NCBI GenBank assembly: GCA_016930235.1
Contig: JAFGHI010000021.1
Coordinates: forward strand, 56,810 to 120,809
From: Candidatus Omnitrophota bacterium
GTDB taxonomy: Bacteria > Omnitrophota > Omnitrophia > Omnitrophales > Aquincolibacteriaceae
Direction: 5' to 3'
DNA length: 64,000 bases
The notes beneath the pieces are model-generated. The model saw nothing but the letters and a program-made list of their open reading frames with translations. It made no database searches and had not been told where the DNA came from. The position numbers and the translations under genes are program-made. Below are positions 26,505 to 34,110 of the stretch, one piece after another. Numbering within the stretch: position 1 is the first letter of the stretch; each line of letters begins with the position of its first letter.

Positions 26505-27404
26505 TTAAACTACGGGTATCTTATCCAGAGCAAGGAAAATTCCGTGAAGAATGGCTTGTGGCCTCGGGGGGCAACCAGGCATGTAAACATCTACGGGAAC
26601 GGAACGGTCCACGCCTCCGACAACCGCATAATTCCCCTCAAAGATCCCGCCACTGATAGCACAAGTTCCGCAGGCCACAACTAGTTTGGGAGAGGGTATT
26701 GCAGCATAAGTCTTCACAAGCGCGAGTTCCATCTGGCGCGTTACGGGCCCCGTTACAAGGAGCATATCCGCATGCCTTGGGGAAGCCACAAAATGGATCC
26801 CGAACCGTTCGGCGTCATAAACTGGGTTCGAGAGATTCACGATCTCCACTTCACAACCATTGCAGGAACCCGCGTCGACTTCGCGGATATGAAGGGATCG
26901 GCCGAAGAGACCGTGTATTTTATCCTTTAATTTCAAACCTGTTTCTTCCATCGAAAGCCGGCTCGAAAAATCACCCTGCTCAAAACTTTGAACATCGTCC
27001 GCTTGGTCTTTAGCTGGCAAAGCATTGCTTGAAATAAAAGCAGTGTCTTTCCGGCAATCAGACAAAGAAAAAGATGACTGCAAGTGCAATTCTTTTTTCG
27101 TTCTGACGGCAAGATTGAATTTGCCTTTAAAAGAGATCGCTTGATGGGAGCAAACCGGCCCGCAGAGACCGCAAAAGATGCAGTCCCCGTAAGAAAGATG
27201 ACAAAAACGCTTGTCCTCGGCCGAGCGGTCCACCATCGTCAATGCCTTGGTCGGACAGGCGATGACGCACTTTCCGCACCCTGTGCATTTCGCAGGATCG
27301 ACCTCAGGCGCGCCGAGAAATCCTTCCGGAGCTTTCGCCGTAAGTGCCGTGCGCGGGAGGGTGACTTTTCCCGTTTCCATATTTTTTTTGAGGATCCTAA
27401 ACAT
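26505..27404 (-). CDS. fused 2x[4Fe-4S] ferredoxin (HycF/NuoI-like) and hydrogenase small-subunit/NuoB-like protein
   Basis: The N-terminus has CTGCGKCVIACP and CIFCGLCGPVCS. The C-terminus has the small-subunit motifs SCNGCE, ACGTCA and PGCPPRP, so all 4 Cys of the proximal cluster are present. Confidence 0.75.
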   Translation of the reverse strand: MFRILKKNMETGKVTLPRTALTAKAPEGFLGAPEVDPAKCTGCGKCVIACPTKALTMVDRSAEDKRFCHLSYGDCIFCGLCGPVCSHQAISFKGKFNLAVRTKKELHLQSSFSLSDCRKDTAFISSNALPAKDQADDVQSFEQGDFSSRLSMEETGLKLKDKIHGLFGRSLHIREVDAGSCNGCEVEIVNLSNPVYDAERFGIHFVASPRHADMLLVTGPVTRQMELALVKTYAAIPSPKLVVACGTCAISGGIFEGNYAVVGGVDRSVPVDVYMPGCPPRPQAILHGIFLALDKIPVV

Positions 27405-27425
27405 CCAAAACCCCTTTTTGTTGTT

Positions 27426-31136: not shown

Positions 31137-32083
31137 ACTCCCCTCCCGATCATCAGTTGCCCCAGAAGAGAAAGGATGGCCAGAACAAAAGCCACCGCCA
31201 GAAGGTCCGGGACCCTAAAAAGACGCAATTTCGCAGAATGGATCTCAATCCACCCGATAACAAACGCCAGAAAAAAGACTTTCGCGAGGTAAAGAACCAG
31301 CGACAATCCAAAAGCCAGCGGGTCCCACGAACCCGCAATCCCCCAGGGGAAAAAAAGATCCGACAAGAGTGTCAAAAATACCAGCTGTTTAATCTGATGG
31401 CTCCATTCAATCAGGGCCAGATACCGTCCGGAATATTCAAGGATCATGGCCTCGTGAACCATTGTCAGCTCCAGGTGTGTTGCCGGATTATCCACAGGGA
31501 TCCTTCCACTTTCCGCGATTGTTACGATCAGCAGTGCTCCGAAAGCAAGGCTCGTAAAAAAAAGCATCTGTGTGGGCGATCCGGAAGCGAAATATGAAAC
31601 AATCCCTTCCAGGGACAACGTGTGGGCGCAAAAACCCAAAGAGAAAAAAGCGAGCAGAAGCGCCGGCTCCGCAAGTGACGAAAGCGTCATCTCCCGACTT
31701 GAACCCATACCACCGAACGTAGTGCCAGTGTCCAATGCCGCAAGCGCTAAAAAGAAACGGCCCAAAGCCAGGAGGTAAACAAAGAGGATCACATCCCCCG
31801 TAAAACCAAAAAGAGAACGTATACCTAAAACCGGCAGCATCGAAGCCGCCGCAAAAGTTGACACAAAAAGGACGAAAGGCATGGCATGAAAGATCCAGGA
31901 CGCCGTTTCCGAGATTACCATGTTCTTCCGGAATAATTTCAGTAGATCCGAATAGACCTGGATCAAGCTCGGCCCCACGCGGTTCTGCGAAGCCGCTTTC
32001 ATTTTTTTGATGAACCAGCTAAGCGCAGGCGCCAAAATCGCCAGGAACAAAAGTTGGATAACGGACAAAAGGATCGCCAGCAT
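31133..32083 (-). CDS. NuoH/HyfC/HycD-like membrane subunit
   Basis: A 316-aa protein with 8 TM helices and the NuoH-like blocks RVGPSLIQVYSDLLKL and EYSGRYLALIEW. Confidence 0.7.
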   Translation of the reverse strand: MLAILLSVIQLLFLAILAPALSWFIKKMKAASQNRVGPSLIQVYSDLLKLFRKNMVISETASWIFHAMPFVLFVSTFAAASMLPVLGIRSLFGFTGDVILFVYLLALGRFFLALAALDTGTTFGGMGSSREMTLSSLAEPALLLAFFSLGFCAHTLSLEGIVSYFASGSPTQMLFFTSLAFGALLIVTIAESGRIPVDNPATHLELTMVHEAMILEYSGRYLALIEWSHQIKQLVFLTLLSDLFFPWGIAGSWDPLAFGLSLVLYLAKVFFLAFVIGWIEIHSAKLRLFRVPDLLAVAFVLAILSLLGQLMIGRGV

Positions 32084-34110
32084 CAGGAACGCCCTCCGAA
32101 GAAAAAAAGCAGAAGGATCAGCGTAATAAAAATATAGCTTAAATAAAGCTGGATGTGCCCTGTCTGAATCTGCTTGGCCTTCCGGGATAGAACAGCAACA
32201 AACTCTGACAAAGGTTTATAAACCCATTCATCCACGTGATGCGTAATCTTTGACTCAAAACGCTGTGCAGTCCTGAGCATTGCATGACCTTCATCTTCCA
32301 ACTCCACACGGCGGGTCGGTTGATAGAGAAATGAAAAGATCCGGCGTAAAGGCTTGGAATAACCTGTGGCTGTATACTGCATACGCGGTTCAAGTCCCGG
32401 CATCCCGCAATCCCAGCTGGGACAGATGCGGACAATCTTTTTTCCAAGCAACACCCGCAAAAAGATTACGGCCCCGACCAAAAATGCCGAAAGGATCAAA
32501 GCGATAAGAACCGGGGAAAACTGGCTTGACTCTGAGGGGGATATCAAAAAGGATTTCCGAACCATGGCTCCCATCGGAATATCCGTGCCGGATAAAGTTT
32601 TTGCCACTTTCCCAAGAATAGGCACAATCCATGGAGCCGCCAGGGCCAACCCAAAACAACTCGCGGCCAGGATCCCCATTCCAGCTTTCATGGATCCGCT
32701 CACTTCATGCGCGTGGGCGGCCTGCTCAGAACGGGGCTTCCCTAAAAAGCTGATGCCAAAAGCCTTCACAAAACAGGTGGCCGCCAAAGCACCCGCAAGC
32801 CCAAGAAGCGCGGCTAAAAGCGGTGAAAAAAAACGCAGGGCCGGGCTCGCACCTTCGCATCCCAGCAGAAGCACGATAAAAGTCAGCCATTCGCTCACAA
32901 ATCCATTGAGAGGGGGTAACGCCGAAATCGCAGCCGAACCGATGAAAAAACAAGCGGCCGTCCAGGGCATGTTCCGTATCAAGCCGCCCAAACGCTCGAT
33001 ATCTTTTATGTGGGTGCCAGAAAGAATGGAACCCGCGCCAAGAAAGAGCAGCCCTTTGAAAGTTGCGTGATTTATTACATGATAAAGGGCGGCAATCAGG
33101 GCGAAGGAAGCGTAGAAGGGCTTCTTCGCGGAAGAAAAAACAAGCGCCATTCCAACGCCCAGCAGAATGATCCCGATGTTTTCGATGCTGTGAAAAGCAA
33201 GAAGCCGTTTGAGATCATGTTCCATCAAGGCATAGAGAACACCGAGCAGCGTTGAAAAAATCGCAACCGCAAGCACCGCGGATCCCCACCACGCGGGTAT
33301 CGCGCCAAGAAAGTTAAAAAGGAACAGAAGCAACCCGTAGATCGCCGTTTTGATCATGACTCCTGACATGAGCGCCGAGACATGGCTTGATGCCTGCGGA
33401 TGAGCCTGGGGCAACCAGATGTGAAGCGGGATCACGCCGGCTTTGGTCCCAAATCCGATGAACGCCGCGAGAAAAATAACGTTTTTAAGAACAGGCGGCA
33501 GCGTAACCGCAGCTCCTCTGAATGCATCGAATGAAAAAGAGCCCGCATGGATGTAAAGAAGCAGGAATGCGGCGGTAATAAAAGCGGTCCCCACATGCGT
33601 CATGATCAGGTAAAGCCTCCCGGCAGACAGGGCTTCGGGTCTTTCATGTTCAAAGATCACGAGAAAATAGGACGTAAGAGACATGATCTCCCAAAAAAGG
33701 AGAAAATAGAAAGCATTTTGCACTGTGACCACGAACAGCATCGCAAGAATGAAAAAATTATAGAAGAACCCCAGAAGCGCTATGCTCTTCCTCCCCTGAA
33801 ATTCCCGGGTATAACCGATGGCGAACAGAGAAGCAGCCAATGAAAGAAAAGAAATAATAAGAAGAAAGAAGGCTGAAAAGGGTCCCGCCACGAAGCGTAA
33901 AGCGCCTACCGGGAAACTCCCCTGCAATTCCAGGACCCAGGATCCTCCCGTGAAAAGGATGCCAAGCGAAAAGAGGATGCCCAACGCGCTCGCCAGAACA
34001 GCCAAGCCATGCGTCACGCGGTTCGCTTTTTCTCCGTGTTGTTCAAAAAGAAAACCCGCGATCCCTCCCAATATATGCAGCAACACCTGAACAAAAAATA
34101 ATAATTCCAT
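32083..34110 (-). CDS. NuoL/HyfB/MnhA-like antiporter-like membrane subunit
   Basis: A 675-aa protein with about 16 TM helices and the blocks GVIPLHIWLPQAHP and HATFKGLLF. It is the first gene of the operon. Confidence 0.75.
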   Translation of the reverse strand: MELLFFVQVLLHILGGIAGFLFEQHGEKANRVTHGLAVLASALGILFSLGILFTGGSWVLELQGSFPVGALRFVAGPFSAFFLLIISFLSLAASLFAIGYTREFQGRKSIALLGFFYNFFILAMLFVVTVQNAFYFLLFWEIMSLTSYFLVIFEHERPEALSAGRLYLIMTHVGTAFITAAFLLLYIHAGSFSFDAFRGAAVTLPPVLKNVIFLAAFIGFGTKAGVIPLHIWLPQAHPQASSHVSALMSGVMIKTAIYGLLLFLFNFLGAIPAWWGSAVLAVAIFSTLLGVLYALMEHDLKRLLAFHSIENIGIILLGVGMALVFSSAKKPFYASFALIAALYHVINHATFKGLLFLGAGSILSGTHIKDIERLGGLIRNMPWTAACFFIGSAAISALPPLNGFVSEWLTFIVLLLGCEGASPALRFFSPLLAALLGLAGALAATCFVKAFGISFLGKPRSEQAAHAHEVSGSMKAGMGILAASCFGLALAAPWIVPILGKVAKTLSGTDIPMGAMVRKSFLISPSESSQFSPVLIALILSAFLVGAVIFLRVLLGKKIVRICPSWDCGMPGLEPRMQYTATGYSKPLRRIFSFLYQPTRRVELEDEGHAMLRTAQRFESKITHHVDEWVYKPLSEFVAVLSRKAKQIQTGHIQLYLSYIFITLILLLFFFGGRS

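Follow-up and report, generated by a model that had tools for sequence, protein, structure and literature searches.

We report that a 64-kb stretch of DNA from a Candidatus Omnitrophota bacterium (64,000 nucleotides, hereafter the window) carries on its minus strand a six-gene operon, ehrABCDLS, whose product is probably a six-protein complex of the Ehr ('energy-converting hydrogenase-related') family that derives from a minimal Hyf/Ech-like group 4 hydrogenase, has lost NiFe binding and acts as a ferredoxin-linked, ion-translocating oxidoreductase. Judging from the residues at its former active site, the complex cannot be a NiFe hydrogenase. The initial annotation of this DNA had proposed a six-gene hydrogenase-4/complex-I-like operon of the Ehr type; all six open reading frames (ORFs) were confirmed, with identities assigned by Pfam and NCBIfam, and are arranged as follows.

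34110..26505, minus strand: ehr operon of six genes (HyfB/NuoL-like, NuoH-like, HyfE-like, HyfF/NuoN-like, fused NuoC-NuoD-like and fused ferredoxin-NuoB-like)
32083..34110, minus strand: ehrA, HyfB/HycC/NuoL-like antiporter-like subunit, 675 aa, with a C-terminal ND3-like extension
31133..32083, minus strand: ehrB, NuoH/HycD-like membrane anchor, 316 aa
30477..31136, minus strand: ehrC, HyfE-like membrane subunit, 219 aa, with a NuoK-like C-terminal part
29000..30472, minus strand: ehrD, HyfF/NuoN-like antiporter-like subunit, 490 aa
27426..29003, minus strand: ehrL, fused NuoC-NuoD-like large subunit without NiFe ligands, 525 aa
26505..27404, minus strand: ehrS, fusion of a HycF/NuoI-like 2x[4Fe-4S] ferredoxin domain and a HycG/NuoB-like domain, 299 aa

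The subunit set, the A-B-C-D-L-S gene order, the Cys-less large subunit and the intact Fe-S ligands all agree with the published ehrABCDLS of Geobacter sulfurreducens (GSU0739-45), for which the name comes from Coppi (2005) and a survey from Marreiros et al. (2013), according to the citing passages of PMC6349859, PMC7894505 and PMC3569383. On these definitional features we assign the operon to the Ehr family, the Geobacter prototype being compared through its published description. Ehr has been reported in Margulisbacteria, Saganbacteria, Melainabacteria, comammox Nitrospira, ammonia-oxidising archaea, Methylacidiphilum and Desulfotomaculum, and the literature up to 2026 still describes its function as unknown, as had been stated for this operon. 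No solved structure or biochemical characterisation of any Ehr was found in the literature and no Ehr chain in the PDB copy searched; no mention of Ehr was found in the papers on Omnitrophota that were searched.

The large subunit has lost the NiFe site and kept the proton supply

EhrL matches PF00329 (Complex1_30kDa) and PF00346 (Complex1_49kDa, 3e-46) and is thus a NuoC-NuoD fusion, as in HycE. HMMER aligned residues 36-525, up to the last residue and with no break in the frame, to E. coli HycE (7z0s_E) with E = 3.7e-89, compared with 3e-38 for Nqo4; the value for P. furiosus MbhL is 1e-47. The alignment bears out the proposed loss of all four NiFe cysteines. The native HycE ligands, which we take to be Cys241, 244, 531 and 534, are replaced by Ser229, Asn232, Ser519 and Gly522, with RVCGICGFAH of HycE pairing with RISGDNSLAH of EhrL at L1 and DPCYSCTDR with NLSYSGNDR at L2. 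The four Cys by which group 4 [NiFe] hydrogenases are recognised (L1 C[GS][ILV]C[AGNS]xxH and L2 [DE][PL]Cx[AGST]Cx[DE][RL]; Vignais and Billoud, in the form quoted in PMC7886697) are therefore missing from EhrL, which reads SGDNSLAH and NLSYSGNDR. The protein ends right after ...GNDR and has no C-terminal maturation extension. Three elements of the pocket were located from the HycE alignment.

28296..28328, minus strand: former L1 NiFe motif ERISGDNSLAH, residues 226-236, with Asp231 between the replaced positions
27429..27452, minus strand: former L2 NiFe motif LSYSGNDR, residues 518-525, followed by the stop codon
28440..28487, minus strand: beta1-beta2 loop VGPVHAGIIEPGHFRF, residues 173-188, in which Glu182 corresponds to HycE Glu193

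The structure paper on the formate hydrogenlyase (FHL) complex (PMC9474812) describes the role of the beta1-beta2 loop, the proton-donating HycE Glu193 and the canopy and proton-path residues. In the HycE alignment the proton-relay residues are retained in EhrL (Glu193 as Glu182, His188 as His177 and canopy Arg478 as Arg466), and the proton path His284/Glu437/Arg395 is kept as His272/Glu425/Arg383. E182, R466, H272, E425 and R383 are invariant or nearly so in the homologue alignment (A2). Ser283 of HycE is Asn271 in EhrL, a substitution listed as allowed in PMC9474812. Taken at sequence level, the pocket appears to have lost its metal, not to have turned into a canonical quinone site and to have kept its proton supply.

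An AlphaFold2 model of EhrL (predicted template modelling score 0.88) showed low local confidence (pLDDT) for the pocket-forming loop and the C-terminus in the monomer. Foldseek retrieved HycE (7z0s_E) as the best match to this model, with a TM score of 0.92 and 33% identity, followed by E. coli NuoCD with 0.86 and 22%, and the fold is thus confidently predicted to be HycE-like.

The electron-transfer modules and membrane subunits are complete

EhrS gave Pfam matches to Fer4 (twice) and Oxidored_q6, while NF009053 and NF006076 matched residues 1-119 and NF005012 residues 182-296. The ferredoxin domain (HycF/HyfH-like) takes up residues 1-119 and the NuoB-like domain residues 166-296, of which 181-296 match NuoB. 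The former aligns to HycF with 8.5e-20 over residues 1-119, and the latter to MbhJ with 4e-43 and to HycG with 7e-42. The small-subunit cysteines had been described as intact, and GSC181NGC184E, GTC248A and GC278PP are indeed all present, giving the cluster ligands C181/C184/C248/C278. The claim of two CxxCxxCxxxCP motifs in the ferredoxin domain holds in that both Cys sets are complete and the first (C40/43/46/50) ends in CP, but the second (C75/78/81/85) is followed by Ser and reads CxxCxxCxxxCS. The proximal cluster is ligated in the hydrogenase-type CxxC manner, C-N-G-C as opposed to the tandem CC of bovine NDUFS7 (N2 type). EhrS thus has both the CxxC-type proximal [4Fe-4S] site and the NuoI-like 2x[4Fe-4S] part of group 4 hydrogenases, and its sequence predicts a complete electron wire of three [4Fe-4S] sites, two HycF-like and one NuoB-like proximal. 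The ferredoxin domain aligns only to residues 1-119 of HycF; the HycB-docking C-terminal Cys quartet is absent, which fits the absence of a HycB or FdhF gene.

Among the membrane subunits, EhrA scores 730 bits against NF005086 ('hydrogenase 4 subunit B'), which exceeds the curated cut-off, and matches PF00361; its best solved relative is HycC (7z0s_C, 8e-73, residues 32-593). EhrB matches PF00146 (NADHdh, 5e-43), EhrC matches NF008556 ('hydrogenase 4 membrane subunit', 6e-29) and PF00420 (3e-5), and EhrD matches NF005044 ('hydrogenase 4 subunit F', 1e-145), PF00361 and PF00662. The Glu of transmembrane helix 5 and the Lys and His motif of helix 7 are kept in both EhrA (WEIMS; GFGTKAG..PLHIWLPQAH) and EhrD (WIAIEG; GYGTKAG..PFHSWLPDAH), the helix-7 Lys of EhrA lying at the position of E. 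coli HycC Leu208, and the Cys of the ND3-like loop of EhrA (WDCG) is retained. The operon has every element to which the coupling of pocket chemistry with ion translocation is attributed.

The replacement residues are conserved and under selection

The 120 best EhrL homologues come from Omnitrophota (59-90% identity) and then mainly from anaerobic methanotrophic (ANME-2)/Methanoperedens archaea (~50%). L1 reads ER[IV]SGD..x.H in 120/120 of these closest homologues, and L2 reads LSY[SA]G[NS]D in all 119 with a complete C-terminus, the remaining one (P0054) ending short of the motif. A frameshift or sequencing error at the Cys motifs, which the initial annotation had named as the possible flaw in its reading, is excluded by the continuous end-to-end ORF and by the same motifs in independent assemblies at 50-90% identity. 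Across all six genes, the ratio of nonsynonymous to synonymous substitution rates (dN/dS; Nei-Gojobori, comparison with three Omnitrophota operons) falls in the range 0.05-0.13, and for ehrL alone it is 0.07-0.085. The ehr genes are under strong purifying selection, which contradicts pseudogene decay.

Redox cofactors have been lost stepwise across the family

The family was scanned in one genome per GTDB species, which gave at least 80 loci; the locus comparison covers the 84 loci listed, to which the locus counts below refer. Their hosts include Methanosarcinales, Methanomassiliicoccales, Thaumarchaeota, Verrucomicrobiota, Acidobacteriota and Nitrospirota, as well as Rokubacteria, Chloroflexota, Bacillota, Methylococcales and Patescibacteria. 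The loci keep the order A-B-C-D-L-S, except that S stands first in some phyla. Most large subunits show S-G-D at L1 and S-Y-[SA]-G at L2, S-G-D being retained by nearly all Cys-less relatives, and at least 11 loci have intact ERICGxC / ELCYxCxDR motifs with the same beta1-beta2 loop VGPIHAGIIEPGHFRF, which is near-invariant throughout, sister NiFe hydrogenases included.

Exhaustive HMMER search of a library clustered at 50% identity retrieved 1,056 EhrL relatives at E <= 1e-30; about 110 of the nearest 150 cluster representatives are Cys-less and about 36 carry four Cys. In a neighbour-joining tree rooted on Nqo4, a rough phylogeny from one alignment, EhrL falls within the Cys-less S-G-D / S-Y-[SA]-G sequences, in the company of Nitrospira, ammonia-oxidising archaea, Verrucomicrobia and Methylococcales, taxa with published Ehr. 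The sister clade is made up of true NiFe hydrogenases that share the operon and the beta1-beta2 loop. EhrL and EhrD are nearest to archaeal copies, EhrA and EhrB nearer to Verrucomicrobia and Acidobacteria, and the sequence signal for an interdomain transfer between Omnitrophota and Methanosarcinales is mixed.

Ligand residues across the listed loci point to a stepwise loss of redox cofactors. The full three-cluster wire is found in the window clade, Methanoperedens, Methanomassiliicoccales, some Bacillota and Vicinamibacteria, its Fe-S ligands being intact in the window and in the Omnitrophota and archaeal relatives. Verrucomicrobia, Acidobacteria and Thaumarchaeota have a HycF-like domain that lacks the ligands of one cluster; Nitrospirota, Methylococcales and Rokubacteria have NuoB only; and Methanosarcina, Dehalogenimonas and Patescibacteria have a NuoB-like protein without any cluster Cys, the beta1-beta2 loop still being conserved. 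Of the Cys-less loci sampled, fewer than half have a HycF-like domain of any kind, and both HycF-like clusters are retained in only about a dozen of the 84. With their ligands gone, the complexes of Methanosarcina, Dehalogenimonas and several Patescibacteria would be unable to transfer electrons.

Several loci deserve individual mention. The NuoB-like protein lacks the four cluster Cys in L037, L042, L054, L055, L056, L060, L062, L067, L072, L076 and L083, with motifs GSDNSxE/GDDA/GNPP or GSTNxxE/GDGA/GDPP in an intact operon. A one-cluster HycF-like domain is fused to NuoB in L008, L015-L017, L026, L046, L049, L061, L064, L025, L028, L035 and L041; in the verrucomicrobial, acidobacterial and thaumarchaeal one-cluster EhrS, the first CxxCxxC motif and the last Cys of the second are gone. 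L040, from a metagenome-assembled genome (MAG) of Chloroflexota, has a large subunit with four NiFe Cys (ERICGACALSH / ELCYACLDR), and its best NuoB-like ORF is without cluster Cys (GSENSCD, GDEA, GDPP), an odd pairing. Two Nitrospirota MAGs (L050 and L069) hold two complete Ehr operons in tandem, of an SGTS type and a GRVSGDTT type, and in a Methanomassiliicoccus MAG (L006) the Ehr operon is directly followed by a true NiFe group 4 cluster (ERVCGICSYHH / DPCICCTDR).

No conserved partner gene lies near the operon

The reported absence of an adjacent formate dehydrogenase or NADH-input module extends further than had been claimed, as neither formate dehydrogenase nor NuoEFG was found in the 64-kb window or in about 6-8 kb beyond either end. 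Hyp and quinone-biosynthesis genes were not found over the same range, and no partner oxidoreductase was found in the whole window or the extra flanks. Clustering of the non-core ORFs within about 10 kb of the operon across the 84 loci revealed no recurrent redox neighbour; the only neighbours that recur, none in more than 13 loci, are histidine kinases, ArsR regulators and ABC ATPases. In the Omnitrophota relatives the same six genes stand alone with differing flanks. Methanoperedens encodes the ferredoxin (112 aa) and the NuoB-like protein (162 aa) in two genes, after which comes a Usp gene. The ehr operon is self-contained and syntenic in Omnitrophota and Methanoperedens.

Proposed mechanism and alternative explanations

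On the reading that we prefer, a low-potential cytoplasmic carrier, most simply reduced ferredoxin, would dock on the exposed HycF-like domain, and electrons would travel along the three-cluster wire to the remodelled polar pocket where the NuoD-, NuoB- and NuoH-like parts meet. In this pocket, lined by Ser, Asp and Asn, they would reduce a protonatable acceptor that is not H+, and this chemistry would power the movement of H+ or Na+ through EhrB-C-D-A in the manner of Ech, MBH and complex I; the reverse direction is equally possible. Ferredoxin is suggested as the donor because no partner subunit is encoded nearby, because the HycB-docking extension is missing and by analogy with Ech/MBH. Omnitrophota make reduced ferredoxin through pyruvate:ferredoxin oxidoreductase (PMC10066038). 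As to the acceptor, the choice within this explanation is roughly balanced, with a soluble substrate or protein partner encoded elsewhere slightly favoured over a lipophilic quinone-type carrier.

Several points weigh against such a complex. A ferredoxin donor may be argued only from the Ech/MBH analogy and the absence of a partner gene. The canopy Asp (HycE D529), strictly conserved in the superfamily according to PMC9474812, is Asn517 in EhrL, and the quinone ligands of complex I are absent, Tyr87 of Nqo4 corresponding to Gly230 and His38 to Ile181. Other Ehr subclades have lost one ferredoxin cluster, the ferredoxin module or all NuoB-type Cys and have kept the beta1-beta2 loop, so that the core function of the family need not involve electron throughput. 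Moreover, one 2026 paper assumes that the Geobacter Ehr is non-functional.

A sub-case of the preferred explanation, possible if somewhat unlikely, is that the complex acts as a ferredoxin:quinone (or ferredoxin:methanophenazine) oxidoreductase and is a pared-down relative of complex I/Fpo/NDH-1 with a quinone head group in the former NiFe pocket. Complex I arose in this way from a hydrogenase pocket (PMC9474812), quinone pathways are encoded in some Omnitrophota (PMC10066038), the NuoH-like subunit, ND3-like loop and proton-relay residues are retained, and the nearest archaeal relatives belong to Methanoperedens, a user of membrane carriers. This is countered by the Gly and Ile at the Tyr87/His38 positions, by the hydrogenase-style CxxC ligation of the proximal cluster in place of the N2 tandem CC, by pocket residues that are small and polar (Ser, Asp, Asn, Ser, Gly) and not hydrophobic, and by the failure to find quinone-biosynthesis genes in the window. 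Methanomassiliicoccales and a MAG that bears the label Acetobacterium have full-wire relatives as well. To our knowledge, the characterised members of both groups lack quinones or methanophenazine. Patescibacterial Ehr was considered as a further argument against a quinone and dropped, since all Fe-S ligands are lost there and the case is not comparable.

It is also conceivable, and in our estimate unlikely, that full-wire Ehr (Omnitrophota, Methanoperedens, Methanomassiliicoccales, some Bacillota and Acidobacteriota) is a ferredoxin-driven ion pump whose acceptor is neither H+ nor a quinone. The strictly conserved Ser-Gly-Asp-Asn ... Ser-Tyr-Ser-Gly-Asn-Asp residues may then form its remodelled polar pocket, fed by the retained hydrogenase proton relay. 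If true, this would represent a hitherto undescribed kind of coupling site in respiration or fermentation, and the graded cofactor loss would record a path from hydrogenase to such an enzyme and on to a redox-independent ion transporter.

The main alternative, a non-catalytic, redox-gated or redox-independent Mrp-like cation/proton transporter capped by hydrogenase-derived subunits, seems distinctly unlikely here; in it the clusters would at most sense the redox state and so gate ion transport in the service of pH or ion homeostasis. The Ehr of Methanosarcina, Dehalogenimonas and Patescibacteria keep the operon and the beta1-beta2 loop without Fe-S ligands, many other Ehr loci are without an electron-input module, a role in pH homeostasis has been suggested in the literature for the Methylacidiphilum Ehr, and several Omnitrophota have cation-transport genes beside the operon, namely a P-type ATPase (window), kdpFAB (L085/L086) and SDF (L001). 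These transporters, however, differ in family and position between genomes, and may be coincidental. The cluster-less subclades make this explanation plausible for the Ehr family; it appears less plausible for the window clade, because all twelve cluster ligands are strictly conserved there from bacteria to archaea at dN/dS ~0.1, which is hard to explain without electron transfer.

A decaying, non-functional remnant of a hydrogenase operon, as the lost catalytic ligands and the 2026 view of the Geobacter Ehr might suggest, is very improbable given six intact and translationally coupled ORFs, the low dN/dS (0.05-0.13), replacement motifs kept between domains at 50% overall identity and Geobacter Ehr subunits that are expressed and abundant in proteomes (PMC7894505). 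Finally, a genuine H2-evolving [NiFe] hydrogenase of the Hyf/Ech type with misread Cys or alternative ligands, to which the NCBIfam name of ehrA, the JGI annotation of relatives and HycE as nearest solved structure might point, is already refuted at the sequence level by the unbroken frame, by the Ser, Asn, Ser and Gly at the four Cys positions, by the same residues in 120/120 homologues from independent assemblies and by the intact ERICGxC / ELCYxCxDR motifs of the Cys-bearing sister clade, with no hyp genes found in the window.

Operon structure and genomic context

The ATGA overlaps noticed in the initial annotation at 29000-29003 and 31133-31136 are both present, each preceded by a GGAGG-type site. 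They join ehrD to ehrL (29003..29000, the ehrL ATG being preceded by GGAGGAG) and ehrB to ehrC (31136..31133); ehrA and ehrB share a one-base TGATG overlap at 32083, and the two remaining junctions are 4 and 21 nt. These overlaps and short junctions indicate that the six genes form one tightly coupled operon. The ehrA ATG at 34110 has AGGAG ahead. For ehrL, the mechanical ORF (27426-29234) opens at a TTG at 29234, 231 nt upstream and inside ehrD, an extension that has no homology support; the 525-aa homologues all begin at the MKPVFQ... position, which places the predicted start at the ATG at 29003.

Two features were located upstream of ehrA.

34224..34252, minus strand: promoter-like TTTACT-17-TATAAT, about 110 nt upstream of ehrA, a pattern match only (10/12 matches in a consensus scan)
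34415-34490, minus strand: tRNA-Asn (GTT), between the ammonium-transporter gene and the ehr operon

The tRNA-Asn gene has its own strong promoter-like site, TTGACC-17-TATAAT (34561-34533), and because it lies within the 757-bp 'intergenic' stretch upstream of ehrA, this stretch is not an empty leader. An Rfam scan for a leader RNA or riboswitch gave the tRNA-Asn as sole match. Between the operon and the next gene lies a 304-bp gap with a weak terminator-like hairpin.

Downstream of the operon, 23015-26201 on the minus strand holds a type-II P-type ATPase and PsiE. Cation-transport genes by the operon were also seen in relatives, namely kdpFAB(C) upstream in L085 and L086 (1-4250) and an SDF symporter in L001 (3393-4601). 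Three Omnitrophota relatives have a PNPOx-like flavoprotein, a HemN-like radical SAM protein, a rubrerythrin and a His_Phos_1 phosphatase downstream of the operon (L001, 14823-18206; L085, 12575-15895; L086, 12195-16221). The PNPOx-like/HemN-like/rubrerythrin set was not adopted as part of the system, the window being without such an arrangement beside its operon; a His_Phos_1 gene (3750-4517) and a radical SAM gene (4602-6341) lie about 20 kb away.

The rest of the window is ordinary chromosome, with lgt, sodA/B, an Amt-PII pair, the P-type ATPase, PsiE, Mla genes, three RND pumps and nusA-infB-rbfA-truB-ribF-pnp-dut-ftsK. The three large RND (AcrB-family) genes are on the minus strand (12027-15161, 53698-57033 and 57008-60229), two of them in an operon with HlyD-type and OEP genes (60233-63245), an ordinary arrangement that is notable for a small-genome phylum.

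Annotation and significance

In the public NCBI records EhrL (MBN1688065.1) is named 'NADH-quinone oxidoreductase subunit C' and EhrS (MBN1688064.1) 'NuoB', and JGI labels relatives 'Ni,Fe-hydrogenase III large subunit'. Both the complex I and the hydrogenase labels are misleading. Such mislabelling can distort metabolic reconstructions, for instance where complex I is scored through PF00346 or hydrogenases are counted by homology. PF00346 served as the marker of 'respiratory complex I' in a survey of Omnitrophota (PMC10066038), and since EhrL matches this family, some of the complex I calls in that survey may be Ehr.

Few members of the complex I superfamily that lack a known reaction are as widespread as Ehr, whose hosts comprise nitrifiers, methanotrophs, metal reducers, ANME archaea and candidate phyla; Omnitrophota can now be added to the list. 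The Omnitrophota copy is a clean variant with the full wire and the proton relay; it speaks in favour of genuine redox chemistry at a site other than NiFe and points to the residues that mutagenesis should target.

Comparison with known systems

Complex I, Fpo and NDH-1 share with the window operon a core of NuoB, C, D, H, K, L and N type, the coupling loops and a NiFe-free pocket. They comprise 11-14 genes, including NuoA, J, K and M and an input module, as compared to six in the window, which is without the Tyr87/His38 ligands, the tandem-Cys N2 site and a NuoEFG or FpoF module.

The MBS/Mbx complex of P. furiosus has 13 subunits with an Mrp module, against six genes in the window. As a sulfane sulfur reducer (6U8Y), it provides a precedent for a group-4-derived complex that has abandoned H2 chemistry and is still a ferredoxin-driven ion pump. 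Its matches are far weaker (MbsL, 6u8y_L, 1.4e-25; MbsJ, 1e-24), and the pocket residues differ.

In Ech and MBH a NuoI-like subunit takes electrons directly from ferredoxin, coupled to ion translocation. Ech (six subunits, ferredoxin-dependent, Methanosarcina barkeri) and the P. furiosus MBH (6CFW) are self-contained complexes like that of the window, but reduce protons at a NiFe site and differ in the composition of the membrane arm.

The core of E. coli FHL hydrogenase-3 (Hyd-3; HycC, D, E, F and G; 7Z0S) is the best solved match for the soluble subunits and EhrA. Hyd-3 and Hyd-4 (Hyf) share with the window the NuoC-NuoD fusion, the hydrogenase-type proximal cluster and the ND3-like extension on an antiporter-like subunit, whereas the NiFe ligands, HycB, FdhF and the C-terminal Cys quartet of HycF are absent from the window. 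With two antiporter-like subunits and a HyfE-like subunit the window complex is Hyf-like and not Hyc-like, and HycC has Leu in transmembrane helix 7 where EhrA has Lys.

The Cys-containing 'Ehr-like' true hydrogenases, such as Desulfotomaculum ruminis Desru_3260-3265 (PMC3569383), have the same operon order. Those of Ectobacillus (L009), Thermincola (L011) and Desulfotomaculum (L027) have a large subunit 41-45% identical to EhrL and the same beta1-beta2 loop VGPIHAGIIEPGHFRF, with the ferredoxin separate or fused to NuoB. They keep ERICGxC...H and ELCYxCxDR and can bind NiFe, which EhrL cannot.

With Ehr itself, as described for Geobacter, the window operon shares the six-function subunit set, the A-B-C-D-L-S order, the absence of the L1/L2 Cys, the small-subunit [4Fe-4S] site and the kinship to group 4 hydrogenases and complex I; it differs in the fusion of EhrS to a complete HycF-like 2x[4Fe-4S] ferredoxin domain and in its host phylum, Omnitrophota. 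To the initial annotation the present analysis adds the conserved replacement residues, the purifying selection, the membership in the full-wire subset and the lack of a conserved partner gene nearby. The operon is no new kind of system and would not surprise a specialist; it is a cofactor-complete variant of a known, functionally unsolved family.

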